From Alphaproteobacteria bacterium (GTDB lineage Bacteria; Pseudomonadota; Alphaproteobacteria; CAAHEQ01; UBA3637), in assembly GCA_017539265.1 (NCBI GenBank), contig JAFYHG010000027.1, forward strand, positions 13,886 to 77,885: a stretch of DNA of 64,000 nucleotides. Direction: 5' to 3'. A program made the translations under genes and the position numbers. Within the stretch, counting starts at the first letter, position 1, and the number at the start of each line of letters is the position of its first letter. The notes under the pieces are model-generated. The model was given only the letters and a program-made list of their open reading frames with translations, made no database searches and had not been told where the DNA came from. Of this stretch, positions 3-20,100 are shown piece after piece.

Positions 3-575
3 ATGGTTAAAGTTATGCCGGTTAATCGCATTGCAAATTCAGAAGATTTAAACGAAATTATTAACGGAATAGATCAAGCATCCCTTGAAGCTGCTCAAGC
101 AAAGGATCCAAACAAGCCAGCAATGAATATCAGATTAGTATGTATGGGCCACGAACCGGACCTTGGTGCAAAGTTGAAAGCTGAAATTAAAAAACAAGGC
201 TTTGATGTAAATGTTGAAGTTTATGATATTCTTCGCAACGACAAAGAGCTTGAATTTAAGCATCCATCTGAAGCAAACATCGTCAAAGAAGGTAATAAAC
301 TCGTAATTCAAGATTTCTTCCCAATGAATTTATTACAAAAACTATCTATCCAAAAGGAAAACGTTGAAAATTGGAAAGAACTTGTTGAATCTGTCAAGAT
401 AGATTGGAATTATGATGGAGCCGTCTTCCAACCGGCAGTCATTGATTATCCGGAAGATAAAAAAGACATGGTAAAAGGAGTGTACGACATCCCAGCAGAT
501 GTGGGCATTGTCCGTATAAAGATAACAGACCTTTTGTCTGAGAGCTTTGAAACGGAACTTGATTGGAGTAAATAA
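3..575 (+). CDS. Hypothetical protein, probably the 3' part of a gene starting upstream of the window. Its stop lies 2 bp before the start of the helicase-nuclease gene.
   Basis: ORF runs to the window edge. TAA at 573-575, next ATG at 578, so translational coupling is likely. No recognisable motifs. A Type III Mod C-terminus would be a plausible partner but cannot be shown from this fragment. Confidence 0.4.
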   Translation: MVKVMPVNRIANSEDLNEIINGIDQASLEAAQAKDPNKPAMNIRLVCMGHEPDLGAKLKAEIKKQGFDVNVEVYDILRNDKELEFKHPSEANIVKEGNKLVIQDFFPMNLLQKLSIQKENVENWKELVESVKIDWNYDGAVFQPAVIDYPEDKKDMVKGVYDIPADVGIVRIKITDLLSESFETELDWSK

Positions 576-577
576 CC

Positions 578-3265
578 ATGGCAAGAACTTCTTCCGAACA
601 AAACTTTTCATTTGAATTCTTTTCACATTTAAAGAACTTCTATTATAACAACAGACCAAGTATTCGCAAGCACTACAAAGAGTTAACAAAACGAATACTT
701 GACTATAATGACCCAGAAAAAGGTGATGCATTCCTTAGAAAGCCTCAATTTGAAGCACTAGAAATGTATATCTTTCTGAAAGAGTTTGCAAATAACAAAA
801 AAGTTCATGAAATTTTCCGGGATTGGCATGAAGGTAAGAATGGTTTTGAAAAAGAAAAACTGGTCATTACAGAGGATGAATCTGGCCAACAAAGTTTTAT
901 GAAAACCCTTGTATTTTCAAATGAAGATGAATATAAACGTGCTTTTGATTACTTGGCCAAGTCATCTCGTCAGTACGCGAATTATATCTTTGCACTTACG
1001 ATGGGTACCGGCAAAACAATCCTTATGGCTACCTGCATATTCTACGAATTTATACTCGCAAACAAATTTAGAAATGATGCTCGTTATTGTCAGAACGCCC
1101 TGGTATTCGCACCGGATAAGACGGTTTTACAATCTTTGCGAGAAATAAAGGATTTTGATATCTCAAAAGTTTTGCCACCGGAATACGCAAATTTTATCTC
1201 ATCGGCCGTAAAGTTCCACTATTTAAGTGATACAGATACAAGCTTATCTGTTCAACCGGAATCTTTATTTAATATTATCATTTCAAATACACAAAAGATT
1301 ATTATAAAGAAACAACACAAAGAAAAATCAAAATTGGAATTGTTCTACACACAACCATCAACTCGTGCTCTTCAAGAAGAGAAACCTGAAAAAAAGAAAG
1401 ATTCAACCTTTGATGCTATTGATGAATTAATGGGTAATTCGGATGTTCCGCAGGATGAAAAAGAACTAATACCAAATGCCCGTTTTCAACGTATCGCACA
1501 GTTACCCCAGCTGGGAATATACGTTGATGAGGCCCATCACTCTATCGGTAAAGAACTCGCTAGTAGCCAAACTAACAATAAAGAAGCAAGTAGTTTAAGA
1601 ACAACTATTAACGAACTTGCCAGTCGTTTAGATGCTTGTGGTTCACGCGTTGTTGCCTGCTATAACTATACAGGTACTCCGTACATTGGTAGAAGCATTA
1701 TGCCAGAAGTTGTTTATGCCTATAGTTTGGCGGATGCAATCAAAAACAAATATCTGAAGCAAACAGATCCTATCGCGTATTCGAATATTAAATCCGAAGA
1801 CTTTATACGCAATGTCATCAAGAATTTCTGGGAACAAGAAGGGGAAAAACGCGTAGAAGATATGTTGCCAAAACTTGCTTTTTTTGCAGCAACAATTAAA
1901 GAATTGGAAGAAGAACTTCAGCCCAAAATTGAAAAAGTTCTTGATGAATTGGGTATTTCAACTGATAAAATACTGATAAATGTTGGCGATCCAAAATTAA
2001 CGACAAACGATCAACTTCGCGAGTTTAATAGTTTGGATACGCCAGAATCAAACAAACAATTCATACTTCTTGTTGGCAAAGGACGGGAGGGTTGGAATTG
2101 TCGCTCTCTATTCGGCGTAGCTTTATTCCGTAAGCCAAAATCGACCATTTTTGTCCTTCAAGCAACCATGCGTTGTCTGCGGTCGATTGGTCCAAATCAA
2201 GAAACTGGACACATTTACCTCTCTGAAGAAAACTTAAATATTTTGGATGATGAACTTCAACGTAACTTTAACGTAACTCTTGCAGATATTAAAAAGAAAA
2301 AAGAATTACCCTCTTATACAGTTAGAATGGTTCCCCCCCCAGTTAAAATCACATTAAATCGTGTAAAACGTGTTTACTCTATAAAAAAGAAGAAAGAATG
2401 TCCAGAAGGAGTCGACTTTGGTTTGGATAGCCTTGATTATAACAACTACAAAGTTATAAAGACCGATAGGATATCTTTACTTACAACAATGGCAAAGGTA
2501 ACAGATATTACAGAAACAACAAGTAGACGACAGTTTAGTGCTTATATGCTTGTTGCTGAGATCGCTCGCTACTTTAACAATTCAGATGTTTCATGCTTCA
2601 TAATCAAGAAGATACTCGAGGCATCTAAGGAAGGTATAGCTAAAATTGTTGATACTGTTAATTTATATAACGATATTTTATATGATGTAATCATTCCAAT
2701 CATTTACAAAAACCTCTACGAAATTACATCAACCGACAATTCCGAACCAGAGGAGATTGAATTGGTTAAAATTAAGGATACCATTGATAAAACAGTGTTT
2801 ATTCGTAAATGTTCCGAAGATTTGGTTACCTCTATGCAAGATGCATATTTAAGAGATGTTGTTGAGAAAAGTTTTAATTTAGATACATATTGTTTTGATT
2901 CAACTCCAGAAATTGATTTCTTTAGAAAGTCTATATTTGACGACAATGTAGAAAAAATATACTTTACTGGTATGTTGACACATGGTGAATCTGATTTTTA
3001 TATTAATTATATAGATCCAGAAAGTCATACAGTTCGAAATTATTATCCTGATTTCCTAATAAAAACAAAAGACAATAAATGGCTTATTATTGAAATTAAA
3101 GGTGATAACCGGATTGATGATCCTGTTGTCCTGGCAAAAGCTGAATATGCACGCCGTTTAGCATCAGATAGTATGTTTGAGTACTATATGGTTAAGGGAA
3201 CGGATGCGAAAGACCTTGGCTTTGCGGCTCTTGATTATAAAAGTACTCAAGGTAGTTTATATTAA
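578..3265 (+). CDS. SF2 (ResIII/DEAH) helicase with a C-terminal PD-(D/E)xK-like nuclease motif, i.e. Type III restriction Res-like architecture.
   Basis: Helicase motifs seen: LRKPQFEALE (Q-like), TMGTGKT (motif I), VDEAHH (DEAH, motif II), YTGTPY (motif III), QATMRCLR (QxxGRxxR-like motif VI). Near the C-terminus, YPDFLIK ... LIIEIKG fits D...E-x-K of the PD-(D/E)xK fold. Domain order (helicase N-terminal, nuclease C-terminal) is as in Res subunits. Confidence 0.7.
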   Translation: MARTSSEQNFSFEFFSHLKNFYYNNRPSIRKHYKELTKRILDYNDPEKGDAFLRKPQFEALEMYIFLKEFANNKKVHEIFRDWHEGKNGFEKEKLVITEDESGQQSFMKTLVFSNEDEYKRAFDYLAKSSRQYANYIFALTMGTGKTILMATCIFYEFILANKFRNDARYCQNALVFAPDKTVLQSLREIKDFDISKVLPPEYANFISSAVKFHYLSDTDTSLSVQPESLFNIIISNTQKIIIKKQHKEKSKLELFYTQPSTRALQEEKPEKKKDSTFDAIDELMGNSDVPQDEKELIPNARFQRIAQLPQLGIYVDEAHHSIGKELASSQTNNKEASSLRTTINELASRLDACGSRVVACYNYTGTPYIGRSIMPEVVYAYSLADAIKNKYLKQTDPIAYSNIKSEDFIRNVIKNFWEQEGEKRVEDMLPKLAFFAATIKELEEELQPKIEKVLDELGISTDKILINVGDPKLTTNDQLREFNSLDTPESNKQFILLVGKGREGWNCRSLFGVALFRKPKSTIFVLQATMRCLRSIGPNQETGHIYLSEENLNILDDELQRNFNVTLADIKKKKELPSYTVRMVPPPVKITLNRVKRVYSIKKKKECPEGVDFGLDSLDYNNYKVIKTDRISLLTTMAKVTDITETTSRRQFSAYMLVAEIARYFNNSDVSCFIIKKILEASKEGIAKIVDTVNLYNDILYDVIIPIIYKNLYEITSTDNSEPEEIELVKIKDTIDKTVFIRKCSEDLVTSMQDAYLRDVVEKSFNLDTYCFDSTPEIDFFRKSIFDDNVEKIYFTGMLTHGESDFYINYIDPESHTVRNYYPDFLIKTKDNKWLIIEIKGDNRIDDPVVLAKAEYARRLASDSMFEYYMVKGTDAKDLGFAALDYKSTQGSLY

Positions 3266-3274
3266 GAGTGAAAT

Positions 3275-4795
3275 ATGCAAACATCGGCAGCAATTATAAA
3301 AATTTTATTTTGGAGTCTAATACTTTATTTGACGTTTAAACCAAAGAAAAAAACAAAAGGGGAAACATTATTGCAGAATAAGACGACTGCGAAGTCTACT
3401 ACATCTTCAGAAAGAAGTGTATCTAAACCCTTGGCAACGTATATCACTGAGCCAACATCACAAATATCTATTAATAAACATCCTATTATTGATGAACCTG
3501 TTAAAAAAGCTAGTACAAAATTATCTAAATTACAGCAAGATACGTTTGAGATTATTGAAAACACGAATAAAAACATATTCATCCAAGGACAAGCTGGCAC
3601 AGGTAAATCAACTTTTGTAGATTATCTTCAGTCTCATTCTAATAAACGCATACTTGTCGCTTGCCCAACAGCAGTAGCGGCAATAAACGTTGGTGGGTCT
3701 ACCTTACATTCTTTATTTAAACTACCGCTTAGTGATTTTCTGATAATTGATGAGATTATAAAGAAACCTCGGCGTACCCTTGCTTCAATTCTTCAAAAAA
3801 CTGACTTATTAATAATTGATGAGGTTTCAATGGTGAGACCAGATATGCTCGATGCAATAGACGCACTTTCAAGAATTGCACGTTGCAACAGAAAAGTACC
3901 ATTTGGTGGCTTACAAATTCTGTTGATTGGTGATCTTTGCCAGTTACCACCGGTTATAAAGAAAAACACTTATACGGTTTTCAAACAAGAATACGGCATC
4001 TCGGCGCCTTATTTTTTTGATGCTAAATCCTATAAAAATGGTAATTTTGATAAGATCGAATTCTCAAGAGTATATCGGCAATCCGATACAGAATTGCTGA
4101 ATAATCTTATAAAATTAAGAAATTACGAAGATTTAGATTCTGTTATAGAATACTTCAATAACTGTAAAATTACAGACAAAAATATACTTGATACAGCAGT
4201 TACCATTACTCCTTACCGAGCTGTCGCAGAACAAATGAATAAACAAAGGTTGGAGGCAATAAAGGGGACAGAAAAAAACTATGAATGTAAAACAACAGGG
4301 ACATTTGATGAGGTAAAGGATTCACCAGCTCCTAGAGTATTGACATTAAGAAAGGGAGCTCTCGTAATTTTTAATAAAAATAATGGGAGCAAATGGATTA
4401 ACGGGACTAGCGGTATTGTCGAATCATTAAGTGATAATATTATAGAAGTGCGGATTTTAAAAACAAATGAGATTGTTGCAGTAAAAAGAGAAGAATGGAA
4501 AATTTATCAATATGATATTGATAAAGAGACATCAAAAGTTTATGAAAAAGAGGTTGGATCTTTTATTCAATTCCCGCTTCAACTTGGTTACGCACTAACA
4601 ATTCATAAAGCACAAGGTAAAACTCTGGATAGTGTTATCATTGATATTGATCGTGGTGCATTTGCTCATGGACAACTCTATGTCGCACTTAGTAGGACAC
4701 GCAAAAAATCCGATATCCACCTTGTAAAGCCAATTTCACTATATGATATTATACAAGATGATCACGTAATAAATTTTCTTAAAGAAATACAATAA
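3275..4795 (+). CDS. Pif1/RecD-family (AAA_30) SF1 helicase with a hydrophobic N-terminal segment and a low-complexity linker.
   Basis: Motifs: GQAGTGKST (Walker A), LLIIDEVSM (Walker B/II), ILLIGDLCQLPPV, TIHKAQGKT, LYVALSRTR. These are hallmarks of Pif1/RecD/TraA-like helicases. Starts 9 bp after the previous stop. N-terminus (IIKILFWSLILYLTF) is TM-like. Confidence 0.75.
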   Translation: MQTSAAIIKILFWSLILYLTFKPKKKTKGETLLQNKTTAKSTTSSERSVSKPLATYITEPTSQISINKHPIIDEPVKKASTKLSKLQQDTFEIIENTNKNIFIQGQAGTGKSTFVDYLQSHSNKRILVACPTAVAAINVGGSTLHSLFKLPLSDFLIIDEIIKKPRRTLASILQKTDLLIIDEVSMVRPDMLDAIDALSRIARCNRKVPFGGLQILLIGDLCQLPPVIKKNTYTVFKQEYGISAPYFFDAKSYKNGNFDKIEFSRVYRQSDTELLNNLIKLRNYEDLDSVIEYFNNCKITDKNILDTAVTITPYRAVAEQMNKQRLEAIKGTEKNYECKTTGTFDEVKDSPAPRVLTLRKGALVIFNKNNGSKWINGTSGIVESLSDNIIEVRILKTNEIVAVKREEWKIYQYDIDKETSKVYEKEVGSFIQFPLQLGYALTIHKAQGKTLDSVIIDIDRGAFAHGQLYVALSRTRKKSDIHLVKPISLYDIIQDDHVINFLKEIQ

Positions 4796-4813
4796 AAATT
4801 ATCTATTTTGTTT

Positions 4814-5506
4814 TTATTCTAGACATTTATTTAAATCCCAGGGAGTGAGAAGTGCCAATATTTTTTCCGTTGGTTTTCCATTATCGGTTATAAAGATAAC
4901 TTCCAATCTTTTATTATTATTAAAGTCATCTTTAACCATCTCTTTTACCTCATCAACCGTTATGGTTTTTGGTATAAACCTGTAATGAACATCTGGATCG
5001 TTATATAACTCACAAAAATCCTTAAGATCTTTCATACAGATCTCATTAGTCTCCTCAATTATTTCTTGCTTATGTTTATTAAAATACAGCATAAGTGAGT
5101 GTGATGAGAAAACACCCTCTATAGCCCCATTTTTATCTAGTATTGGAGAACAGGTGTAATTTTTATCAAGCATCACTTGTATCACTGTATTAACTCTTTC
5201 ATTACCTGTGACTCTATATATTTTAGCTAAAGGTATTGCTATATCAATAGCTTTTGGAGGATACATTATCCTATCAGCTTCTGCCGCGAAAGTGGTGTAT
5301 AATTCATTAGTAAGATTGATAAATTTGCCATTACGAGCATTATCTTGATGTGTTAACAAATTTCGCAATGTTTTATAGAATTTCCATGTTCCAATGTTTT
5401 TTCCAAAACATTTATCGTCTAATATATTATCTATGTTAGGATTTTTCCTTTTGACAAAGCTTTCTATTTCAGTATATTTGCTTAAAAATTTATCTATTAC
5501 TGACAT
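4814..5506 (-). CDS. Hypothetical protein with an R-x4-H (HEPN-like) motif at the N-terminus and a CBS-like C-terminal half.
   Basis: TLRNLLTHQDN gives R-x4-H. The C-terminal half has CBS-like strings (SPILDKNGAIEGVFSSHSLMLYF; KILALLTPWDL). Lies on the same strand 91 bp downstream of the WYL regulator gene. Domain calls are tentative. Confidence 0.45.
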   Translation of the reverse strand: MSVIDKFLSKYTEIESFVKRKNPNIDNILDDKCFGKNIGTWKFYKTLRNLLTHQDNARNGKFINLTNELYTTFAAEADRIMYPPKAIDIAIPLAKIYRVTGNERVNTVIQVMLDKNYTCSPILDKNGAIEGVFSSHSLMLYFNKHKQEIIEETNEICMKDLKDFCELYNDPDVHYRFIPKTITVDEVKEMVKDDFNNNKRLEVIFITDNGKPTEKILALLTPWDLNKCLE

Positions 5507-5597
5507 CTTATAACCTTTCTAAATGAAATGTATACACGTTGAATTTTACTTAAAAAACATATAAAAATCAATACTAACTATTGACTAACCCACATTT

Positions 5598-6545
5598 TTA
5601 TTTTTCCTTTATCATTGTAGCCCAATTTTTGGGTTTAATAACTTTTACGTGATTACCCCAGGTATAAAGATGCCAATCCATTTCTTTTGAACCTCCGGCA
5701 CGGAATTTAACCGTTAAAGTTCCATCATCATTATGAATCATCTTTTGTTTGGGATGAAATTGATACTCTGCGGCACTACTGGCAACTTCCTTATCAAACA
5801 GCCATTCTACATCAAAAGGTTCCTCATGGAAAATGCCAAAAGACTGGGACATAAACTTTTCCAAAGAGAACTTTTTGTCTCGAGTGAAGTAATCCTTGGA
5901 AACTTTTATATTTCTAATACGGCTGATATCAAATGTGTACATTTGACCCCGCTTTACATTCCAAGCAATCAAATATGGCTTATTCCCATAAACAAAGCCA
6001 TATGGCCAAATAACCTTTTCCGTTGTTGCTACCTTACTTTCATAGGTAATTGTAATAATTTGACAACCCAAAATAGCATTTCTTAATATTTTCATAAATT
6101 CTTTATTGATACGGACTTTTGGGCCAGGGCGAAAAGCATATTTTTCAGATTCAAAGATCATCTCGGCATCTGGTTCATACTTGTTTAAAGCTGGTTTAGT
6201 CATTCCGGCCTTTATTTTATTTAATAATCGGTCAAGATTCTCACTGTCTTCTGGTGATTGTTCCTTCATTAAACGAATCGCTCGTTCTAGAGAATGTAGC
6301 TCTGGAAAATTGATAGCAATATGTTGATTTATTGTTTCAGGGGGAATACACCAAGACTTTCTATTCCCAGGGCCCTTAATCTCCTTCAATTGTGGGAATT
6401 GTTCCTTAATTTCATTTACATAACGAATAGCTGTCCGTTTATTTACCTGATATAATTCCATGATTTGGGATAAATTGACACCTTCCATAGAACTTTGCAT
6501 TCTGGTGACAATTTCCATTAAAATAGCGGTTTTTGTGTATGGCAT
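5598..6545 (-). CDS. WYL-domain transcriptional regulator (HTH + WYL; BrxR/CapW-like architecture).
   Basis: N-terminal HTH-like segment (LSQIMELYQVNKRTAIRYVNEIK). Middle region with the WYL signature (KPYLIAWNVKRGQMYTFDISRIRNIKV). Size about 315 aa, typical of this family. Confidence 0.7.
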   Translation of the reverse strand: MPYTKTAILMEIVTRMQSSMEGVNLSQIMELYQVNKRTAIRYVNEIKEQFPQLKEIKGPGNRKSWCIPPETINQHIAINFPELHSLERAIRLMKEQSPEDSENLDRLLNKIKAGMTKPALNKYEPDAEMIFESEKYAFRPGPKVRINKEFMKILRNAILGCQIITITYESKVATTEKVIWPYGFVYGNKPYLIAWNVKRGQMYTFDISRIRNIKVSKDYFTRDKKFSLEKFMSQSFGIFHEEPFDVEWLFDKEVASSAAEYQFHPKQKMIHNDDGTLTVKFRAGGSKEMDWHLYTWGNHVKVIKPKNWATMIKEK

Positions 6546-6605
6546 AGTACTCCTTTCTGTTATTGATATATCCTACAACAAAATGAAACAAATTGCAAGT
6601 AGTAA

Positions 6606-6622
6606 GTGACAAAAGTTGTCAC
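6606..6622. promoter_or_regulatory. Perfect 7-3-7 palindrome GTGACAA-AAG-TTGTCAC in the divergent intergenic region; candidate operator for the WYL regulator.
   Basis: Read directly in the sequence. Lies between the WYL gene start (6545) and the -35 of the plus-strand operon promoter. Confidence 0.45.
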
Positions 6623-6640
6623 CGATTTCCCTTTGATATC

Positions 6641-6669
6641 TTGACTTTTTGAAAATAATTCTGTATGTT
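6641..6669 (+). promoter_or_regulatory. Sigma70-like promoter TTGACT-17-TATGTT for the GIY-YIG operon.
   Basis: TTGACT at 6641-6646, a 17-nt spacer, TATGTT at 6664-6669. A GGAGG RBS sits ~10 nt before the ATG at 6707. Confidence 0.45.
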
Positions 6670-6706
6670 GAACGCGTTGTTTAACTTTTATTTGGAGGAC
6701 TAAAAA

Positions 6707-7150
6707 ATGTTGATAACTGGTACAAAAGAACAAGTTCATAATTTTCTAAAAACGGAGCCACATGAGTTTTATGTGTATGTACTCTGTGAACCCAACAAGA
6801 CTCCGTTTTATGTTGGGAAAGGCTGTGGAAACCGTATATTCCAACACGAATACGAAGCTGCACGCTCAGCATCTCGTAATCCCTACAAAACTAAAATGAT
6901 TAAAAACATTACGAAAAAGGATGGTAAGATTATCTACACAATAGATAGTGTACATAAAACTGAAGAAGAGGCTTTGATTCGTGAACGTGAGCTGATGCGT
7001 GAAATCGGCAGACCATTATTAACAAACCTGTCGGAAAAAGACTATAATACGACTCATGGTCGTTTGTACTGGTCTATTACGGGTATGTTAAAAGGCATCA
7101 ACAGAACTGTTTTTAGATTAACACATTCAGGAAAGGAGACATTACAATGA
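6707..7150 (+). CDS. GIY-YIG family nuclease domain protein.
   Basis: FYVYVL ... PFYVGKG ... NRIFQH ... EEALIRERELM ... LTNL reproduces the GIY/YIG/R/H/E/N catalytic pattern. Confidence 0.65.
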   Translation: MLITGTKEQVHNFLKTEPHEFYVYVLCEPNKTPFYVGKGCGNRIFQHEYEAARSASRNPYKTKMIKNITKKDGKIIYTIDSVHKTEEEALIRERELMREIGRPLLTNLSEKDYNTTHGRLYWSITGMLKGINRTVFRLTHSGKETLQ

Positions 7151-7461
7151 ATTTGGCTATGGTTTCGGGAACAATGGGTCCTATCAGAGATAAAGATATT
7201 TTTGTCAGAAATGACGGTGCAACAGTCGTAGATGGCTATATTGAAAAGACGTTTATGAAAGGCGAACAAGAGATCCGTAGTCATTATTACTTCACGGTTT
7301 CCGGAGGAAAAGCGGATAACTTACTAAAGTACTATCGGCCAGGTGATAGGGTTATGCTTACAGGGAAACTGGCAACCCGAGTTGACGAGGATGGACATTT
7401 TTGGGTTACTATTGTAGCATCTAGTTTTAGCAAGATGGATACGATAGATACGGATATTTAA
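7147..7461 (+). CDS. SSB-like OB-fold protein (short, no acidic tail).
   Basis: MNLAMVSGTMGPIRD ... ATVVDGYI ... YYFTVSGGKADNLLKYYRPGDRVMLTGKLATR ... HFWVTIVASSF parallels the SSB OB-fold layout. Overlaps the upstream gene by 4 bp (ATGA). Confidence 0.45.
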   Translation: MNLAMVSGTMGPIRDKDIFVRNDGATVVDGYIEKTFMKGEQEIRSHYYFTVSGGKADNLLKYYRPGDRVMLTGKLATRVDEDGHFWVTIVASSFSKMDTIDTDI

Positions 7462-7476
7462 GAAAGGAGAAAAATC

Positions 7477-7671
7477 ATGGGATTTTGGAGTGCTTTGTTA
7501 GGATTGGTTGATACACCGTCAAATAATGGATATAATAATGGTGGCAATCGTTATAATCGAGAGCCGACCGCAGAAGATTATATTCGTTCTGGTGAAATTG
7601 AAGAGGGTAATTATGATGATGGACAGAGAAATACAATTGACGAACACGGTCAATTACCAGATGACTGGTGA
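7477..7671 (+). CDS. Small protein (64 aa) with a hydrophobic N-terminus and an Asn/Gly-rich, acidic tail.
   Basis: AAAGGAGA RBS 6 nt upstream. In-operon position. No homology recognised. Confidence 0.35.
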   Translation: MGFWSALLGLVDTPSNNGYNNGGNRYNREPTAEDYIRSGEIEEGNYDDGQRNTIDEHGQLPDDW

Positions 7672-7729
7672 AGCTTTATTATCATATAGTTAATTATATA
7701 AACGGATTTTTAGAAAAGGAGACCATATT

Positions 7730-8149
7730 ATGAATACACACTTTATTCGCATTTGGAAAAACCATATTAAAAAAGAAAATGGTATTACAACAGAGTTTTT
7801 ATCAGTAAAGCCAAGCCCATTTAATAAGAAAGAATATGTTATGCCCGTTGTGGGGGATTATGCATATGTTTACCATTTGATACATGATGCAGAACCTTAT
7901 GAGAACACACCAGGCCGAGGACTTGATTGCTATGGAAAAATAACAAAAGTCACTGAAGAAAAAAGGAAAGTATCAATTTCGCTATCAGTTGAAAAAGAAA
8001 TGTATCCTAAAATTTTCAGATGTGATCAGCTGAAGGGATTAACGTACCCCAATGAACTAGATAAATGTATGTCGAATAGTTGTAATGAAGGTATAAATTT
8101 ATTGTCCCAAGAAGCAGATGACTTTTTACAAAAACAGTTTAATCAATAA
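7730..8149 (+). CDS. Hypothetical protein (139 aa).
   Basis: ORF within the co-directional operon. AAAGGAGA RBS upstream. Confidence 0.45.
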   Translation: MNTHFIRIWKNHIKKENGITTEFLSVKPSPFNKKEYVMPVVGDYAYVYHLIHDAEPYENTPGRGLDCYGKITKVTEEKRKVSISLSVEKEMYPKIFRCDQLKGLTYPNELDKCMSNSCNEGINLLSQEADDFLQKQFNQ

Positions 8150-8164
8150 ATTAAAGGAATCCCA

Positions 8165-9475
8165 ATGACAAAAGATATCCATACAATCAAATGCCCCAAA
8201 TGTGGAGAAGTTTTTCCGATTGATGAAAGCGGTTACGCCGCTATTGCCAGCCAAATTCGCGATAATGAGTTCCGAAAGGCTTTGGAAGAACGCTTTGAAC
8301 AAATGCAAGCGGATAAAGAAAGTGCCCTGAAACTTGCTCAGGTAACCGCTGACGCTGATAAAGAAAAATCTGTTTCTGCATTAAATCATCAAATTGATAT
8401 TTTAAATCAACAGCTAAAAACGATTAAAAAGGAAAGCGAACTTGATAAAGAGCAATCCATTGCGGAGTATAAACAGCAAATTACGGAGCTTCAGGCTCAA
8501 ATCAAGGCCAATGAAAAGGATAAAACCATTGCTGTTAATGCCGCACTGGAAGAAAATAAAGACACTTTGGTTGAAAAAGATAAAGAAATTATTGAATTGA
8601 AAGGGAAACTCCAAGGCGCCGAAAAGGATATCAAGCTTCAAGAGAAATCTTTAAAAGAAAAATACGAGATGGAATTGAAAAATAAGGACGAACTGATTGA
8701 TTATTATAAAGATTTAAAGATAAAGATGTCCACAAAAATGCTTGGGGAGACACTTGAACAGCACTGTGAAATCGCATTTAATATCATCCGTGCAACAGCT
8801 TTCCCAAATGCTTACTTTGAAAAAGACAATGACTCCAGAACAGGCAGTAAGGGGGACTATATTTTCAAAGAATCCACCGAGGATGGCATAGAATTCCTAT
8901 CCATTATGTTTGAAATGAAAAACGAAATGGATACAACAGCAACAAAACATAAAAATGAACATTTTTTCAAAGAATTAGATAAAGACCGTCAAGAAAAAGG
9001 ATGTGAATATGCCGTTTTGGTCTCTTTGCTAGAGTCGGATAGTGAGTTATATAACACGGGAATTGTTGATGTTTCCTACAAATATCCGAAAATGTATGTT
9101 ATTCGTCCACAATTCTTTATTCCTATAATCACTTTGCTCCGTAATACTTCCATGAATTCTGTTCAGTATCGCCGACAACTGGTCGAGTATAGAAACCAAA
9201 ATATAGATATTTCAAACTTTGAGGCTAAAATAGAAGATTTCAGAGACAAAATTAAGAAAAATTATCGTCTAGCAGGAGAGAGATTTAAAGCAGCAATTGA
9301 AGAAATTGACAAAAGTATAACACACTTGCAAAAAATTAAAGATGCCTTGCTTTCCACAGAAAGTAACTTACGCCTTGCTAACGATAAAGCTCAAGATTTT
9401 ACCGTCAAGAAACTCATTAAGGACAATCCGACAATGCAAAAGAAATTTGCAGAACTTAATCCACCAGAGGAATGA
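8165..9475 (+). CDS. DUF2130-like protein: N-terminal CxxC zinc ribbon, long coiled coil, and a C-terminal region with a D ... E-x-K (PD-(D/E)xK-like) arrangement.
   Basis: [29 protein letters not shown] matches the DUF2130 N-terminus as I remember it. Heptad-rich K/E middle. KGDYIF ... IMFEMKNE near the C-terminus. Confidence 0.6.
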
Positions 9476-9516
9476 GTACAGAGCTAAAAGATTTATGTAA
9501 GCATTGATTATATAAG

Positions 9517-10266
9517 ATGATAAAAGGAATTTGCAAATATTGTGGTCAAGAGAAAGAACTTATCAATTCTCATATAATTCCGAAAAATTTATGTCAAATT
9601 GATAAGAATGGCCCAATGGTTGGAATAGACTCTCTAACAAAGACTTTTGACCATAATCCTATACATCAAAACGGAGCAAAAGCTTACCTTCTGTGTAAGG
9701 AGTGTGATAATCTATTAGGTAAGCTAGATAGATATGGTAGTAAAGTGTTTAAGAAGATAATTCCAAATCATAAATGGGACATAGTAGATGGTGTAGAACT
9801 ATGTAAATTATTACCAGATGAAGTAGATTACTGGACATTAAAAAAGTTTTTAATTTCTGTGTTGTGGCGTGCTTCTGTAGATAAGAATGGGCCTGATTTA
9901 GGAAGATATGAAAATATTGCACTAAAAATACTTAAGGAAGAGCTTCCTGATAATTCTAACTATTTTGTTCCTTTCGTATACATACTAGACACTAAGACAC
10001 CCTTAGACTTTTCTATGGGGATTTTTGGCAATAAAACTTTAGGGAAACACATATATATTATTCACTTCCCTCATTATGAGGTAATGATTATACCTTCTGC
10101 TGAACATTCACGAGACCCAAAACTTATGGAACTATACAAGGCTTTATTCAATTGTAACCATATAATAGTTCAGAAATTTTCTATACCAACCCTGATTGAC
10201 CAACAATTGATTAACACATTAAAGATATGTCAAAAGAATGAGTTACAAAAAAAGAAAAAGTTATAA
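9517..10266 (+). CDS. Cys-cluster protein with an HNH-like arrangement (CxxC ... HIIP ... CxxCDN).
   Basis: CKYCGQEKELINSHIIPKNL and LLCKECDNLLGK. The spacing is longer than in a canonical HNH, so this is tentative. Confidence 0.4.
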   Translation: MIKGICKYCGQEKELINSHIIPKNLCQIDKNGPMVGIDSLTKTFDHNPIHQNGAKAYLLCKECDNLLGKLDRYGSKVFKKIIPNHKWDIVDGVELCKLLPDEVDYWTLKKFLISVLWRASVDKNGPDLGRYENIALKILKEELPDNSNYFVPFVYILDTKTPLDFSMGIFGNKTLGKHIYIIHFPHYEVMIIPSAEHSRDPKLMELYKALFNCNHIIVQKFSIPTLIDQQLINTLKICQKNELQKKKKL

Positions 10267-10305: not shown

Positions 10306-10887
10306 TTATATCGTCACATTCTCTACAGCATTTGAGAGCATTTTCTCGTTATAATTGAAGTACCTTTGAGTTGTCCCAATATTGCGGTGGTTGGCGAGTT
10401 TTTGAACCAAACAGATATTTGTGCCGGCATTGATAAGGCGACTCACGAACAAATGGCGTCCAAGATGGCTTCCCCCGTCAATATTGAACTTACTGTAAAT
10501 GTTTGAAAACATTCTGCTAATACTAACACGATTGAAAGGTTTTCCTAACTTTTGCGAGGTAAAGAGATACATTTCTGGGGTAATTTCTTCATTTTTGGTC
10601 TTTAGGTAAGAAAGATATTCCTTAAACTCTTTCTTCATTTGAGTATTAAGGTAATAAGAACACCCGAACTTGCCTTTGTTTTTATCCTTATCCAGACAAA
10701 TGACATCCTTGACCTTTAGGTCGGAAGTGTAGACATCCCCGACTTGAAGGTAAGCAAAATTTATAGACCTCATGCCATTGAGCGAGCATAGGAACATCAT
10801 CCTAATTTGTTCCGCATGTCGCATCCCCTGAATATAGGTTAAAATATCTTTGATTTTTTTATCATCTATAAAAACTTGGTTTACCAT
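10306..10887 (-). CDS. Tyrosine recombinase, catalytic domain only (193 aa).
   Basis: R (LNGMRSI), HLGRHLF (H-x-x-R), NHRNIGTTQRY (terminal H/Y) reproduce the integrase catalytic residues. No N-terminal core-binding domain is present. Confidence 0.65.
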   Translation of the reverse strand: MVNQVFIDDKKIKDILTYIQGMRHAEQIRMMFLCSLNGMRSINFAYLQVGDVYTSDLKVKDVICLDKDKNKGKFGCSYYLNTQMKKEFKEYLSYLKTKNEEITPEMYLFTSQKLGKPFNRVSISRMFSNIYSKFNIDGGSHLGRHLFVSRLINAGTNICLVQKLANHRNIGTTQRYFNYNEKMLSNAVENVTI

Positions 10888-10967: not shown

Positions 10968-12788
10968 ATGTTAAAAAATGTTATTTTTTTGAATAAAATT
11001 AAACATTTTGAAATACTTGCCTGGAATGACGTTTTCAAAAACATTGATTTTATAAGGCTATTAGGGATAATGTTAAATAATGTATGTTTTTTAACATTTT
11101 TCATTTTTCTGGACTTTTGGATGATTTTATTGTATACTGCGACCAGTTTTTTAAATTTTCATGGATTCAGTATGCGAATAAACCGTCCAAATTATTTTAG
11201 CGAGATTGACGAGCAAGATGTCCTCTTCTATGGAGAGGAAGGACGCTTTCGGAGAATATCCCTAGATTTCTGGAAAGATGTTTACCCAAATATATTGCAA
11301 GCGTACTTATCAACCAAACAACCCGAAAATGATTTTAAGGACACTTTTGTAGACCCGTCATTTTATCCGATAGGTCCAGAACATGCACTACGTTTATGCA
11401 CGAGGGTGTTTACAGATATCTTTCCTTCGTGTTTCGAAACAAATTACTCGGAACTTCCTGATAGACCTGGTAAGTTATATGAAAAGGATATAGAGCCACT
11501 TAAAGACAAAAAAGGGCTTGTTGGGGCTATTGCGAGAACATGGAACAAAATAGGCAAATATGGAGACTATCATTTTTTACAGCTCCTAGAGATTGTTAGC
11601 ACATTTAAAAATGGTATTGTAAAACTTACGGATAAACTGCCAGACCCACTATATGCTGATTTTGTAAAAGAAATACGTGCAGTCTTTTATAAGTACGCAG
11701 ATTTATTGAATAATAAAGAAATCAGAAAAGAAATTGATAAAATCGTTTTCTTAAAGCATCCGAATGCAACTAAAAAGATTAAGTCCCCAAGAGGATATCG
11801 GATAGTTAAGGCAGAATACGCCCGTTGTGAACTTATTTTTGAAAATGTGGATTTTGGTAGGAAAGAACAGGAGCTTTTCTGGAACATACTAACGATTCCA
11901 GAGGGTTTTGTTCCAATGGAAACAGCTTTTTTCCTTAATTGTAGATTTTCTGCAACCTATACATGTCCTACAAAAGTAATTCGTCCCAGGGCTTTGTTCA
12001 GATACTGCATATTTGAAAAAGAATTTGCCCCAGCTCCATATATCCAGCAATCATGGAGATTTATAAACTGTACAATAAAAAACAAATTTAATTTCAGAAA
12101 AACAGTGCTACGCAGAGGGCTTTTCTTTCATGGATGTGTGTTTGAGTCGGAAAGTTCATTCATATTTGATAATTCACGTGGCAACCGTTGGGTTCCGAAA
12201 GATTACCCATATAATAAACTTTATTTTACAGACACAATATTTGGCGGTGATTTCTCCATAATGAATACAAGTTTAAGTCATACTGAATTTGTATTGAAGA
12301 ATGTCGCATTTTTCAAAACATTCCGCTTTGATGAAGTCAGATTAAGTGATAAGTGCACTTTTGAACGTATTAGTTTTGCTTTGGGAAGTACTCCGCAAAT
12401 AATACAATGTAAACAAACTTTTGTTGAAATGCTCCAATTACACGGATATCATGCGGAACTTGATTCACTGGGATTATTAAGTAAAAATTCTAACAAAAAA
12501 AGAGCTCAACGCTTTTATACATCATGGCTTCATCCAATCGAAGCAGCCGAATTTCTTTCCAAAAGCATAAGTTGGTTAGCCAAGAAAAGACAAGCCGACA
12601 GATTAAAGAAAACAAAGACTTCTATACCATTTGTTGGGGAAAAGAAAAATATTTTATACCCCAAGACAGCCTTACAGGCATTCCGTTCACAAGATTGGAA
12701 TAAGTTAAAAGAACTCTGTAAAAAATATGGAGTTGGTGAGAAAGAAAAACCCAAATCTGCCGACATTAGCATATTTGATGTAGATTAA
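10968..12788 (+). CDS. Large hypothetical protein (start uncertain; hydrophobic N-terminus).
   Basis: Long ORF. Its last ~95 nt are duplicated downstream of the abi gene. Confidence 0.45.
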   Translation: MLKNVIFLNKIKHFEILAWNDVFKNIDFIRLLGIMLNNVCFLTFFIFLDFWMILLYTATSFLNFHGFSMRINRPNYFSEIDEQDVLFYGEEGRFRRISLDFWKDVYPNILQAYLSTKQPENDFKDTFVDPSFYPIGPEHALRLCTRVFTDIFPSCFETNYSELPDRPGKLYEKDIEPLKDKKGLVGAIARTWNKIGKYGDYHFLQLLEIVSTFKNGIVKLTDKLPDPLYADFVKEIRAVFYKYADLLNNKEIRKEIDKIVFLKHPNATKKIKSPRGYRIVKAEYARCELIFENVDFGRKEQELFWNILTIPEGFVPMETAFFLNCRFSATYTCPTKVIRPRALFRYCIFEKEFAPAPYIQQSWRFINCTIKNKFNFRKTVLRRGLFFHGCVFESESSFIFDNSRGNRWVPKDYPYNKLYFTDTIFGGDFSIMNTSLSHTEFVLKNVAFFKTFRFDEVRLSDKCTFERISFALGSTPQIIQCKQTFVEMLQLHGYHAELDSLGLLSKNSNKKRAQRFYTSWLHPIEAAEFLSKSISWLAKKRQADRLKKTKTSIPFVGEKKNILYPKTALQAFRSQDWNKLKELCKKYGVGEKEKPKSADISIFDVD

Positions 12789-12790
12789 AC
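12695..12790. repeat. Direct repeat copy 1 (96 bp), including the 3' end of the 10968-12788 gene.
   Basis: 95/96 identical to 13985-14080 by direct reading. Confidence 0.9.
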
Positions 12791-12839
12791 GGTTTATCTT
12801 ATTGAAAATAAATACGATATAAAATTAATTAAAAAAGTG

Positions 12840-12914: not shown

Positions 12915-13979
12915 ATGGAAGGGCATTATTTTAAGGTTATAGAAATGCAGAGAGTCAAATTTTTTAAAGAATCAAAAACCCCTGATGAGCTTATAGAACA
13001 ACTTGTTAAACGTGGTATGGTAATTACAAATCGTGATTATGCTAAAGATATTTTATTTAAAATTAATTATTATCGTTTATCAGGATATTGGTTTAAATTT
13101 CAAAATAAATGGTTAAAGCAATTGCCAGTTCCAGAAAACGCAACCAGTGAAGAAATTGATGAACTGAATAATCAATTTATCAGACGGGTATCCTTTGAAA
13201 ATATTGTTGATATATACAGATTTGATAGTAAATTACGTTCTTTATGCATAGATGCACTGGAGAAAATAGAAATTGGAATTAGCTCTGTTCTCTGTAATCA
13301 TATGTGCCAAAAGTATGGCGGATATTGGTTTTTAAATAAACAGCTTGTGCAAAAAGTCACAAAAAAAACTAAAGAAGGAGAAAAAGTTTTATTTAATCAT
13401 GATTTATTAATGGAAGACATTGATAAGTTATTAGCAAAAAATAAACGAACAAAATGTATCAAAAATTTTCGAGTAAAATATACTGATGAATATCCTCCTT
13501 ACTGGATATTAGCTCAATTGGTAACATTTGGAACTTTATCGAAAATTTATTCTTCTTTACCCCCTGTAGATAAAAAAGAAATTGCAAAGATGCTAGGTGT
13601 AAATGATGAACTGTTATCACACAGCCTCACATTACTGTCTTATATTAGAAATATTTGTGCTCATTATGCCCGCTTATGGGATAATGATAATAGTGTTGTC
13701 CCTTTGAATATTAATTTTAATCGCATAGAACCCAACAGTATTTTTAATTATCGCTTTCATACAAATGGAAAGAATAGTGCAACATTCTTCCCAGTATTTT
13801 ATTTAATAACCTTATACTTATATATGCTTTATCCGAAATCTAAATGGTGCTCCATTGTTGAACAAAAAATTAAAGAATATGAGAAATTAACAGATTCATT
13901 GGTTTCTTTTAAGACCATGGGATTTTTAGATACGTGGAGAGAATTACCATTATTCATAAGAATGCTCAAGAATGCGTAA
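12915..13979 (+). CDS. Abi_2 family (AbiD/AbiF-like) abortive infection protein.
   Basis: N-terminus ... TPDELIEQLVKRGMVITNRDYAKDILFKINYYRLSGYWF is a classic Abi_2 start. Later, IRNICAHYARLWDN gives the R-x4-H (HEPN) motif of this family. Confidence 0.8.
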   Translation: MEGHYFKVIEMQRVKFFKESKTPDELIEQLVKRGMVITNRDYAKDILFKINYYRLSGYWFKFQNKWLKQLPVPENATSEEIDELNNQFIRRVSFENIVDIYRFDSKLRSLCIDALEKIEIGISSVLCNHMCQKYGGYWFLNKQLVQKVTKKTKEGEKVLFNHDLLMEDIDKLLAKNKRTKCIKNFRVKYTDEYPPYWILAQLVTFGTLSKIYSSLPPVDKKEIAKMLGVNDELLSHSLTLLSYIRNICAHYARLWDNDNSVVPLNINFNRIEPNSIFNYRFHTNGKNSATFFPVFYLITLYLYMLYPKSKWCSIVEQKIKEYEKLTDSLVSFKTMGFLDTWRELPLFIRMLKNA

Positions 13980-13984
13980 CTTAA

Positions 13985-14080
13985 TTGGAATAACTTAAAA
14001 GAACTCTGTAAAAAATATGGAGTTGGTGAGAAAGAAAAACCCAAATCTGCCGACATTAGCATATTTGATGTAGATTAAAC
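13985..14080. repeat. Direct repeat copy 2 (96 bp).
   Basis: Matches 12695-12790 with one mismatch. Confidence 0.9.
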
Positions 14081-14596
14081 GATTCCCTTATGTAAAATTA
14101 GGTCGAACATAATGTCCCAAGCTGTTTGTCCTTTCTTATTTTTTAAATTGGTTAAGTCTGCTCCATAGTCCAAGAAGGCATAAAGAAGTTTCTTTTTACG
14201 GTGGATGTTTTTATCAAAAAGGACTCTCATTAAAGCTGTATTGCCCCAAATGTCCTGTGTATCTAACTCCGCCCCTGAATCCACAAATAACCAGGGCACT
14301 ATGGCTTCACATTGTCCTTCAACCGCACGCATTAGAGGAGTTTCCCCGTGTTGGTTGGTCTTGTTCACATCTCCGCCCATGTTTATTAAGGCTTCAATTC
14401 TTTCCCCATCTTTAAAATAATTCATAGCGTATAAAAATGGAGTCATGCCAATCGGGGGCATAGGTCTGTTTAAGTCTGCTCCTTTCTTTACATAGTATTG
14501 TATGAGTTTCAAATTCCTTTCTTTAATGGCTTTTAATAGGTCTTCCTGTATATTCATAGTCTCTCCTTTTAAATTATTTATCCCTACTGATTCCAC
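14075..14596 (-). CDS. Ankyrin-repeat protein.
   Basis: ANK consensus stretches (GMTPFLYAMN ... GETPLMRAVEGQ ... GNTALMRVL ... GADLN). Confidence 0.7.
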   Translation of the reverse strand: MESVGINNLKGETMNIQEDLLKAIKERNLKLIQYYVKKGADLNRPMPPIGMTPFLYAMNYFKDGERIEALINMGGDVNKTNQHGETPLMRAVEGQCEAIVPWLFVDSGAELDTQDIWGNTALMRVLFDKNIHRKKKLLYAFLDYGADLTNLKNKKGQTAWDIMFDLILHKGIV

Positions 14597-17158: not shown

Positions 17159-20100
17159 TTAGAACTTCCACTTAAATCCGGATTTTAAGGATGTTCGGAC
17201 TTCCTTGTCTATGTAGGACATAATCGATCCGTACAGGCTGTAATCCGACCAATCATAGTCAAACCCTGCACGAATGACCCCACGGTTATCACTCCGCTTC
17301 TCGTCTCTAAGCATAAACGTTCCGTCCATACCCTCCATCCCGACGCGCAGTTTATACGGATCCGCAAACTCGTGATAAGCCGCCACTCCTGCCGTCAATT
17401 TAATCTTCGACGTCTTCGTCAGTTCCTTATCCTTCGTCAGGTATAGTCCGATACCGCCTTCAACAGAATACGTATTCTGGCTCTTGATGTTCAGGGCATA
17501 GTCCTTATCTTCTTCATGGCCTCTCTGAGTGTAGCCCAAGATATTAAACTCCGCCGCCGGTTCCAATGTCCATTCGCCGAATGTTAATGGATAGCGGGCT
17601 TCATTCATTAAACCATAAACACGTTTCTCTATCGTTCCGTCATAGTTCTTATTATCGAACCCAGTCCGGTCATACTTACCCCGTGCATACCCGATCCGCG
17701 GTGATGTCATTAGGTTAAAGCCATGTGTTCTGTATCCGATCGGCACAACGAGTTGATACATGCTGTCATGTCTATCGTCATCATCATGGGCATTATCCGA
17801 ACGTGTGTTCATGAACGCAACACCAAGACCCACCGACCATCTGCCATCCCGTTTGTTATACAGGCTGTATCTGGCATCTGATCCATTGTCGCCACGGAAC
17901 GCCATAGGCCTTACAGATCCTGCTAATGCAAACGCTTTCTCTTTGTTATGGAAGAGTTTTTCATTCATGTCAAAGTTGAGTTCCCTCATCATTGTCATGT
18001 CTTCGAAATTAAAGCGCGAGAGCATCTCTTTACCCGTCATCTTATCCAAACTGCTGGTTAAGCTATGGACATCACCGAAGCTCTTTAACTTATTAAAGAA
18101 CGCTTCATTCTTCCCTGACGCATAGTTCCGTGTTAAGAACTCTGCCAGGCTCGCATTCTTCGTCGCCGTGTCAAACCCTCGCATCGTCATCACAACATCT
18201 TTACCGTTATCCGCTAAGCTGGCATCAAACATTGCCGACTCGGATATCAGATTTAGTTCACTTGCATCCTGGGCAATAATCGCATCAGAAAGCGTGTAGA
18301 CTTGTTCAAAACCACTTGTTTCACCGTCTACATACAATTTTCCTTTAATACTGTCCGCCGAGAAAGATCCGCCGTTAAGCAACATAATCTTTCCGTTTCG
18401 ACCGGCTAATGCATCCAGATCCAATTCTGTATCAAAATTGACATTGCCTGAATTTTTCATATTCATACTTCCGATATCGGACATTCCGCCCAATTGAGCA
18501 AAATCGGAGGCCTTTGACAAAACTCTATGCACCCCATTAAAGGTTCCCTTATTGACAAATTCTAAATTTGCTCGGGTTGCTCCCATATCTTTATAGGTCA
18601 CGGTATATGTTTTTGAATCAACTGTCGGAACGAAGAAATGTCTCCATTCTTCAATATCACCATTAATTGTTCCCGTTTTTTCATTAACCAATTTAGACGG
18701 GCCTAACACCATAACGCCTTCGGAAATAGTTCCCTCATTGATAAGTGTTCCCTTAAATAACGTTACACCGTCATTAATACTTCCCTTATTGGTAAAATAG
18801 GCACTGCCGTCCAATTGAACACTACCGACTGTTCCTTCGTTTACACCAACGATATTACCAAACGCCGAGACATCTTCAACAGAGGCAGAAGCCTTATTTG
18901 AAAAGGTAATTTGACCGTCAAATCCATAGAGAGTAACCTCTCCGTAAATGTGTCCTTCGTTTTTAACCCAAATAGGTGCCCCCACGGATATCCCGATAAC
19001 ACTAGCAGGTTGATAGGTATAGCCGCTGCTGCTTCCTATCGTTCCCGAGTTTTCAAAATTCGCACCATAGACATAAACCTCATCTACATCGAAATCATCA
19101 TCCGGATTTTTAACCTTAACCGTTGCCGAATTCTTTAAAGTCGTTTTTCCACCGCTGAGTCCAGGATTTCCTGCATATAGAACAGGGCGGTATTCCCAAT
19201 CTATCGTATCATCTGGTTCACCAAAATCTTTGATATGCTTGGCTAGCCATAGAATTTCATAGTTATTTTCATTAAAACTTGATGGCGGATTTATTTGGGA
19301 TAAATTTGCCTTTTGAAGTTTTGACGTATCATCAATAACTTGATTTGTTGTGTTCGTATAAGTTTGTCCGGCGGATACTCCTTTATCCTTCCATAAAACT
19401 CGAACACCCGTCGGTAAATTTGCCCAATTCTTTCCGGAGAGAGGTCCTGTCCATGCGGAATTGACGCATACCCCATTACTGGGTACATATCCGGCCGCAC
19501 AGGAACAAGTTGCCTCATCCACATTGCTTCCAGATAATCCGCAAGTTCCGCAATCATTTCCTTTCCAGTTACCGGAACATGAACAGGCTTGAACCGTTCC
19601 GCCTTCGGAAGTTCCCCCGTTTTGGCATGCTTGGCATGTTGTCCCATTCAAGTATTCATTTTCATTACAATTAAGAACACATACATTACCGCTGGGAATA
19701 TATCCGCCCGTACAATCGCAACTTGTTGAATCGACATGGTCTCCCGATAATTTACAGGTTCCGCAATCATCTCCTCCCCAATTACCGGAGCAACTACACG
19801 ATAAGCTTGTTCCACCGTCAGAGGTTCCCCCGTTTTGACATGGTGTACAACTTGTCCCGTCATAGTAATTATTAACCTCACAGGCCGCATAATCCGATTC
19901 TACGTTATCATTAACAACAATTCTTCCGGCATTAATCAATGTAGAACCGCTGCCCATATCAATGCCGTAACTTTTATCTTCATCCGTGTCCGAAATAGTA
20001 ATCAGCCCTCTGTTTTTAACCGTTGAGTTATCCCCAACTTTAATACCATAGGCTTTTTTATTTGCAATATTTTGCCCTGTGATTTCAATTTCACCCGAAT

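Follow-up and report, generated by a model that had tools for sequence, protein, structure and literature searches.

Fusions of HEPN and CBS domains, some of them with an HD domain, were described in 2013 by Anantharaman et al., who suggested that such proteins degrade RNA in response to the nucleotides that they sense; the same work gives R-N-x3-H, including the polar residue after the arginine, as the catalytic signature of HEPN domains (PMC3710099). DS-11, a system from DefensePredictor, consists of one protein with CBS and HEPN domains that defends E. coli against phages, and its defense is abolished by each of the substitutions R330A and H335A in the HEPN domain and Y157A in the CBS domain (PMC13092281). 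Y157 is a predicted adenine contact, and the logic proposed for DS-11 is that sensing of an adenine ligand by the CBS domains gates a dimeric HEPN RNase, which the authors' HHpred analysis typed as SAV2148-like (PMC13092281). DS-11 (WP_000257686.1, 365 amino acids [aa]) belongs to NCBIfam NF053863, "CBS domain-containing anti-phage protein," and has its CBS pair at residues 134 to 241 and its HEPN domain at the C terminus. In this study, we analyzed a locus in which a WYL regulator gene is followed by a gene for a 230-aa protein with a HEPN-like half and a CBS-like half. The initial annotation of this DNA held that such a fusion would be an unusual effector, a judgment that is not supported in view of the fusions known since 2013 (PMC3710099) and the defense shown for DS-11 (PMC13092281). 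Because the CBS-HEPN architecture and its role in defense are already published, the locus leaves current concepts unchanged. What is new here is the reversed domain order, the minimal HepT-like HEPN domain, the size of 230 aa, and a rare, uncharacterized family.

The window, the whole stretch of DNA that was analyzed, is 64,000 nucleotides long, and the HEPN-CBS gene lies within a low-GC (29 to 36%) island at roughly 1 to 16.3 kb. The gene, which encodes the candidate ligand-gated RNase, occupies positions 4814 to 5506 of the minus strand, stop codon included, and follows, after a gap of 91 bp, the gene for a DriD-like regulator of 315 aa with an HTH-WYL-WCX layout (positions 5598 to 6545, minus strand), assigned by Pfam, PADLOC, and PDB matches. 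The list of open reading frames bears out the pair as initially annotated: two frames at these positions on the same strand, separated by 91 bp, the downstream one of 230 aa. Both genes have good ribosome-binding sites, and that of the HEPN-CBS gene, AGAAAGG, lies in the spacer (positions 5507 to 5597, minus strand). No terminator was found in the spacer, so the RNase gene may share a transcript from a WYL-regulated promoter, and the two genes may be cotranscribed. The spacer also holds a weak sigma-70-like match (positions 5571 to 5543, minus strand), from which transcription of the HEPN-CBS gene may be independent of WYL; the promoter scan that gave this match was at chance level, with 11 sites against 11.5 expected. 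A repeat scan of positions 4700 to 6800 likewise returned only chance-level repeats.

The N-terminal half of the protein contains TLRNLLTH at residues 46 to 53, and within it RNLLTH (R48-N49-x3-H53; positions 5348 to 5365, minus strand) is a candidate catalytic HEPN motif. A single R-x4-H is not significant in itself, as it occurs in 13% of shuffles of the protein (1.2% for RN-x3-H); the significance of the motif comes from its conservation across the family. Across 20 aligned members that are 18 to 68% identical to the query, the residues that never vary are M1, R48, N49, H53, P121, G131, and G210, so that R48, N49, and H53 are the only invariants of the N-terminal domain apart from M1. The member on a Chlorohelix plasmid keeps the motif as KLRNSLVH. 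An AlphaFold2 model of the full-length protein has a pLDDT of 77.5, and a model of the N-terminal domain by itself (residues 1 to 88, positions 5243 to 5506, minus strand), made from the 20-sequence alignment, has a pLDDT of 84.5 and a pTM of 0.74. The latter is an all-alpha up-down helical bundle whose second helix ends with the motif, and its fold matches solved HEPN domains; lower-ranked structure matches are HepT (5yep), AF0298, 7ae2, TT1696, ST0689, YutE, the sacsin HEPN domain, and two Csm6 proteins. A sequence-profile search of the PDB gave HI0074 as the best match (E value of 0.045) and three HepT entries at E values of 0.4 to 0.8, and the HI0074 and HepT matches were each aligned on their own RNxxxH motif. 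No HEPN model in Pfam, PADLOC, NCBIfam, or PHROGs matches the whole protein or the N-terminal domain. In Pfam, the query had no HEPN match at an E value of ≤0.1, and the best result was a HepT-like match at 0.063 in one of eight members. The domain has three long helices (residues 3 to 21, 32 to 53, and 67 to 81) instead of four. Given the matches in fold and motif on the one hand and the three helices and lack of a significant curated model on the other, we call it a minimal HEPN domain, for which the support is good but not complete; it resembles the minimal HepT/HI0074 type and is predicted to act as an RNase. The initial annotation had proposed TLRNLLTH as a HEPN motif by the spacing of its arginine and histidine, and both the invariance of R48, N49, and H53 and the HEPN-like fold of the model, which was the structural check on that proposal, argue for it.

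The C-terminal half (residues ~89 to 230, positions 4817 to 5242, minus strand) had been described by eye as CBS-like, and this description gained strength. The Pfam CBS model covers residues 95 to 141, corresponding to CBS1 only, with a score barely over the threshold (24.8 bits; cutoff, 24), and matches the plasmid homolog in two stretches at 39.7 bits. In the model, this half consists of two tandem beta-alpha-beta-beta-alpha units as in solved CBS pairs. A Foldseek search of the PDB with the modeled half returned 257 matches at an E value of ≤1e-3, all of them CBS pairs; CBSX2-AMP, DarB/CbpB, YkuL, and MJ0922 were at the top, with E values of 8e-7 to 1e-5 and TM-scores of 0.6 to 0.7 relative to the target. 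DarB and CbpB are c-di-AMP receptors. The invariant residues P121, G131, and G210 are canonical CBS residues, T207, T221, and D224 are highly conserved, and the conserved CBS motifs T221-x2-D224 and G-h-h-S are present. The marginal Pfam call is thus confirmed by the structure match of the modeled half, which we regard as a CBS pair (Bateman module) whose ligand, judged indirectly from the conserved motifs and from the alignment of Tyr117 with a DS-11 residue (see below), should contain adenine.

Both DS-11 and the 230-aa protein combine a CBS pair with a HEPN domain bearing R-N-x3-H in one protein, and in an hhalign alignment Tyr117 (codon at positions 5156 to 5158, minus strand) falls on Tyr157, which DS-11 needs for defense. 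The two proteins differ in domain order, which is HEPN (residues 1 to 88) and then CBS (residues 89 to 230) here but an N-terminal extension, CBS, and then HEPN in DS-11. They also differ in length (230 versus 365 aa) and in HEPN type, minimal HepT/HI0074 here and SAV2148-like in DS-11. NF053863 scores 15.4 bits on the 230-aa protein (E value of 0.0076; cutoff, 260) and covers the CBS1 region only. Alignment of the family profile to DS-11 with hhalign was similarly confined to CBS1 (query residues 95 to 146 on DS-11 residues 135 to 186; Prob 39%), and the profile of the N-terminal domain aligned to the DS-11 HEPN domain over a 16-residue motif alone, without significance. The score below the cutoff, together with the reversed domain order, places the 230-aa protein outside the DS-11 family, and we rejected membership on these grounds.

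The minimal HEPN toxins HepT, HI0074, and TTHA0636 are parts of MNT-HEPN toxin-antitoxin modules, and their HEPN domains are about 30 to 45 residues longer than the N-terminal domain here. HepT modules have an MNT antitoxin as a neighbor, whereas the HEPN-CBS gene is without an MNT (nucleotidyltransferase) neighbor. In HepT, MNT AMPylates a tyrosine two residues after the motif histidine, and this tyrosine is missing from the 230-aa protein (H53-Q-D). Control would presumably be exerted by the fused CBS pair here and by the antitoxin in HepT-type modules. In Csm6 and Csx1 (CARF-HEPN) and in other fusions of a sensor to a HEPN domain, the sensor is a CARF or SAVED domain, in contrast to the CBS pair of the 230-aa protein, and unlike for Csm6 and Csx1, no CRISPR or ligand-making cyclase gene lies near the HEPN-CBS gene. 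The examples alr3009 and Pelobacter gi 118580987 of Anantharaman et al., which we compared by description only, combine HEPN and CBS domains as the 230-aa protein does, but they were listed under "other fusions," and some include an HD domain that has no counterpart here.

The family is rare. Eight members with at least 50% identity to the 230-aa protein came out of a word-indexed search of 5.8 billion proteins, and when 1.84 billion cluster representatives (50% identity) were searched exhaustively by HMMER with the N-terminal 94-column profile of the family, 16 matched at an E value of ≤1e-3. Nearly all of the HMMER hits are 212 to 241 aa long, and they have the two-part layout of HEPN and CBS in common. 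Members occur in Alphaproteobacteria, Gastranaerophilales, and Chloroflexota. One homolog (L007) lies in an island with GmrSD, Fic, and ABC-3C genes, with 3 bp separating the end of the Fic gene from the homolog downstream, and another (L008) has a GmrSD gene 3.7 kb away. Two homologs in Gastranaerophilales (L010 and L024) adjoin an integrase gene and a Bro-N gene, a context shared by L011, in which the integrase is disrupted, and the homolog on the Chlorohelix (Chloroflexota) plasmid follows a methylase gene. Others (L001/L002, L005, and L022) sit amid housekeeping genes, and pheS/rplT, H+-pyrophosphatase, and MGMT genes are among the housekeeping neighbors of several homologs. Altogether, at least five independent contexts are in or near defense or mobile modules. 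No partner gene of HEPN-CBS is conserved; the neighbors differ in every lineage, for which reason an MNT-type antitoxin or any other conserved partner was rejected. A scan of viral contigs and a tblastn search of phages found no HEPN-CBS copies. The patchy lineages, varied contexts, and lack of a fixed partner point to a solitary module, and the data fit a horizontally mobile single-gene cargo.

The regulator upstream has Pfam matches to WYL (40.7 bits; cutoff, 21.8) and WCX (34.1 bits; cutoff, 23.9), a PADLOC WYL match at 1.4e-26, and the sequence YLIAWN, all of which accords with its initial annotation as a WYL gene with an HTH domain and YLIAWN. The HTH_11 model scores only 13.9 bits, and the wHTH is included in the alignment to DriD over residues 3 to 310. 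At least 494 homologs were found at an E value of ≤1e-10. DriD, a WYL activator of Caulobacter crescentus with the same HTH-WYL-WCX layout, provides the closest solved relatives (8tp8 and 9pfq; E value of 1e-38 over residues 3 to 310), and the solved chains of BrxR and CapW gave no pairwise sequence match even at an E value of ≤10. The comparison with BrxR/CapW-type regulators in the initial annotation holds for the domain layout. The BrxR/CapW repressors share with the present gene not only the HTH-WYL-WCX layout but also a position ahead of variable cargo in a defense island and an inverted repeat upstream (PMC9122601).

Between the WYL gene and a divergent operon of GIY-YIG, SSB-like, and DUF2130 genes (intergenic positions 6546 to 6706), we found a perfect palindrome, GTGAC-N7-GTCAC (positions 6606 to 6622), as a candidate operator 61 nucleotides upstream of the WYL start codon. 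It is present once in the window, where a single copy by itself is at chance level (67 of 100 shuffles), and no second copy with up to two mismatches was found in the window, the 91-bp spacer included. The palindrome is conserved at the loci L014 to L016, whose WYL proteins are 82% identical; the arms and the upstream position are the same and the spacer has changed, and as a binding site it is only putative. More distant WYL homologs (L017 and L020) have other palindromes upstream. The DriD box is ATACGAC-N7-GTCGTAT (PMC10853764). Both DriD and the present regulator have a palindrome with an AT-rich N7 center upstream of their own gene, but the half-sites differ (GTGAC here and ACGAC in DriD), as does the distance to the ATG, which is 61 nucleotides here and about 17 nucleotides on average in the report on DriD homologs. 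Going by these sequence features, the WYL protein probably binds the candidate palindrome upstream of its own gene.

The pairing of the two genes is not conserved. A WYL gene is present at none of the 11 other HEPN-CBS loci, whose flanks were searched by tblastn and with an HMM built from 120 WYL homologs (the plasmid was assessed by annotation), and among the loci tested, WYL stands beside HEPN-CBS only in copies of this same island. Nor is there a HEPN-CBS gene near close WYL homologs in any of the 4 other contexts examined. At the locus of the 82%-identical WYL protein, genes for an alpha/beta hydrolase and an ankyrin protein lie downstream on the same strand, and in two of the four contexts the downstream ankyrin genes are convergent, which suggests that the main target may be WYL itself or the divergent operon. 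WYL homologs at 54 to 57% identity are divergent to blocks of small open reading frames in integrase-bearing elements, and a T5orf172 gene upstream of WYL is also seen among the four contexts. The suggestion that a WYL gene followed by its effector is a general arrangement thus found no support at the 11 HEPN-CBS loci or in the 4 WYL contexts. WYL is a promiscuous regulator cassette and HEPN-CBS a promiscuous cargo, and they occur together only in this island.

We favor, with moderate confidence, a model in which one polypeptide, the 230-aa protein, forms a nucleotide-gated HEPN RNase and its gene is carried as mobile cargo downstream of a DriD-like regulator. HEPN RNases act as dimers, with a composite active site formed by two Rx4H motifs. 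By analogy, the 230-aa protein would dimerize and build such a site from its two motifs, and the CBS pairs would also dimerize, with an adenine-containing molecule as their ligand. When a phage infects or the cell is under stress, this ligand would be bound or released, which would set the two HEPN domains in an active position relative to each other, and the resulting cleavage of RNA would lead to growth arrest or abortive infection. Such gating would follow the logic of DS-11 and be analogous to that of the CARF-HEPN proteins Csm6 and Csx1; dimer gating, the identity of the ligand, and the role in defense are all modeled on these systems. Read-through from the WYL-controlled promoter could add a transcriptional layer, for example, one that senses single-stranded DNA (ssDNA) or DNA damage.

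Several observations weigh against reading the protein as a defense RNase, namely, the unmatched HEPN models, the lack of copies in the viral and phage searches, and the housekeeping contexts of several homologs. The last of these would suit a housekeeping protein that regulates RNA stability in response to a second messenger or the adenylate energy charge and has no part in anti-phage defense or abortive infection, which is the kind of role that Anantharaman et al. proposed for HEPN-CBS fusions (PMC3710099). Such a regulator would also be in keeping with the nearest CBS structures, DarB/CbpB and CBSX2 among them, which serve as metabolic or second-messenger sensors. However, a distribution as sparse and patchy as 16 clusters in 1.84e9 proteins over three lineages, the varying neighborhoods with at least five independent contexts in or near defense or mobile modules, and the precedent of DS-11, which points to defense, all speak against such a regulator, and we consider a housekeeping role improbable. 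Still less probable, in our estimate, is that the N-terminal domain is a noncatalytic helical domain for dimerization or regulation in an ordinary stand-alone CBS sensor, in which case the conservation of the arginine, asparagine, and histidine would serve the binding of a ligand or partner.

A separate question, which leaves the 230-aa protein a ligand-gated HEPN RNase in either case, is whether its position behind the WYL gene is accidental. WYL would then control its own promoter and that of the divergent operon, which would belong to a mobile element, and the RNase gene would be independent cargo with its own promoter. The palindrome is situated between the divergent genes and has no copy in the 91-bp spacer, which itself contains the sigma-70-like site; the WYL homologs at 54 to 57% identity are divergent to small-ORF blocks and have a convergent gene downstream; and the 11 other HEPN-CBS loci lack WYL. 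All of these features would be expected of an accidental neighbor. The shared strand, the short gap, and the absence of a terminator argue the other way, as does the locus of the 82%-identical WYL protein, which again has same-strand cargo downstream in the form of an alpha/beta hydrolase gene. Variable cargo downstream also fits the regulator-plus-cargo layout of BrxR-family regulators (PMC9122601), and the promoter scan, with its 11 sites against 11.5, did no better than chance. We regard accidental adjacency as a serious possibility, somewhat short of an even chance.

If the nucleotide-gated RNase that we favor is active, a self-contained enzyme of 230 aa would be switched by a small nucleotide, and CBS-HEPN control of a toxic RNase would have originated or undergone rearrangement on more than one occasion. 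The family would then offer a compact second system in which to find the ligand of CBS-gated defense RNases, and the neighboring DriD-like regulator would extend ssDNA-sensing WYL control to HEPN-CBS effectors. A more far-reaching version, to which we attach only tentative belief, is that the HEPN-then-CBS fusion came about independently of DS-11, through capture of a minimal HepT-like HEPN domain by a CBS pair in place of the MNT antitoxin, and that in this island it is under two-tier control by WYL and CBS. In this rather speculative scheme, transcription would go up when WYL detects ssDNA, and the RNase itself would be activated when the CBS pair detects a nucleotide. Among known self-contained HEPN RNases with ligand gating, the 230-aa protein would then also be the smallest, a distinction that we would claim for it with equal reserve.

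The island that carries the pair contains genes of the restriction-modification (R-M) type, for an N6/N4 methyltransferase and a ResIII/TnsA-like nuclease-helicase, which together resemble a type III R-M system, and a gene for a PIF1-like helicase. Control of the R-M and helicase genes by WYL was considered and rejected because these genes are convergent and on the opposite strand. The island also encodes a GIY-YIG protein with a PD-T4-3 match, a DUF2130 protein, and an Abi_2 (AbiD/F) protein, and its mobility genes are those for a short tyrosine recombinase (integrase) and a resolvase.

The operon divergent from the WYL regulator gene (6707-10266, plus strand), which encodes a GIY-YIG nuclease, an SSB-like protein, two small ORFs, a DUF2130 protein and a Cys-rich protein, may be the regulator's real target. 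The nuclease is LEM-3-like and matches PADLOC PD-T4-3 (E 1.4e-9), and the Cys-rich protein (249 aa) matches phrog_19960. The SSB-like protein has an OB-fold, the DUF2130 protein is 436 aa long, and the small ORFs (64 and 139 aa) are without family matches. Genes for WYL homologues at two other loci are preceded by the palindrome TGTCA-N5-TGACA (L017 5920-5940; L020 5290-5310), which differs from that in the window. That homologues of 54-57% identity carry a different palindrome suggests that, within this WYL clade, regulator and operator have co-diverged.

A plus-strand block of methyltransferase, ResIII helicase and PIF1/RecD-like helicase genes at 3-4795, which extends upstream of the window (5861-11964 in L012, the sequence reaching past the window's start), appears to be a Type III-like R-M system plus one more helicase. 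The ResIII protein has a weak match to the BPTD_3080 restriction family. This protein (895 aa) has a TnsA-like endonuclease at its C-terminus, the PIF1/RecD-like helicase is 506 aa long, and the N6_N4 methyltransferase is 627 aa long, with only its C-terminus in the window. The block and the HEPN-CBS gene are convergent.

Elsewhere, the neighbours of HEPN-CBS homologues are of other kinds. At the Gastranaerophilales loci, a conserved ORF of 184-191 aa starts 10 bp 3' of the homologue (L010 10706-11281; L011 2926-3480; L024 5706-6281) and is 93% identical between loci. This ORF has no match in Pfam, is missing from the window and the other HEPN-CBS loci, and could be a lineage-specific partner. 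At another locus, L007, the HEPN-CBS homologue follows 3 bp after the end of a gene (8931-9983) whose Fic/DOC-family product has an HTH-like region at its N-terminus, and the two may form an operon within a GmrSD/ABC-3C island.

In each of two unrelated lineages, a HEPN-CBS gene has nearby an unusually short tyrosine recombinase made up of the catalytic domain alone: 193 aa in the window (10306-10887, minus strand) and 181 aa in L010 (9211-9756). A tblastn search of the window with the L010 protein gave no match at E<=1e-3, and any kinship between them is therefore distant. The Abi_2 gene (AbiD/F-type HEPN; 12915-13979) is flanked by a 101-nt direct repeat whose copies are 98% identical (12694-12794 and 13984-14084), an arrangement that suggests recombination or the insertion of a cassette. 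A 606-aa ORF without family matches (10968-12788) has its 3' end in the first of these copies.

The N-domain profile, built on the N-terminal part of HEPN-CBS, also matched 18 separate stretches of P0009, a 2366-aa protein (E 1e-14). All fall on profile positions ~59-88, and P0009 probably matches as an artefact of repeats or low complexity, not as a relative.

Immediately beyond the low-GC island, at 42-45% GC, a 1500-aa ORF (17159-21661, minus strand) that gave no Pfam match at E<=1e-3 is divergent from a 1024-aa ResIII/SNF2 helicase gene (21803-24877, plus strand).
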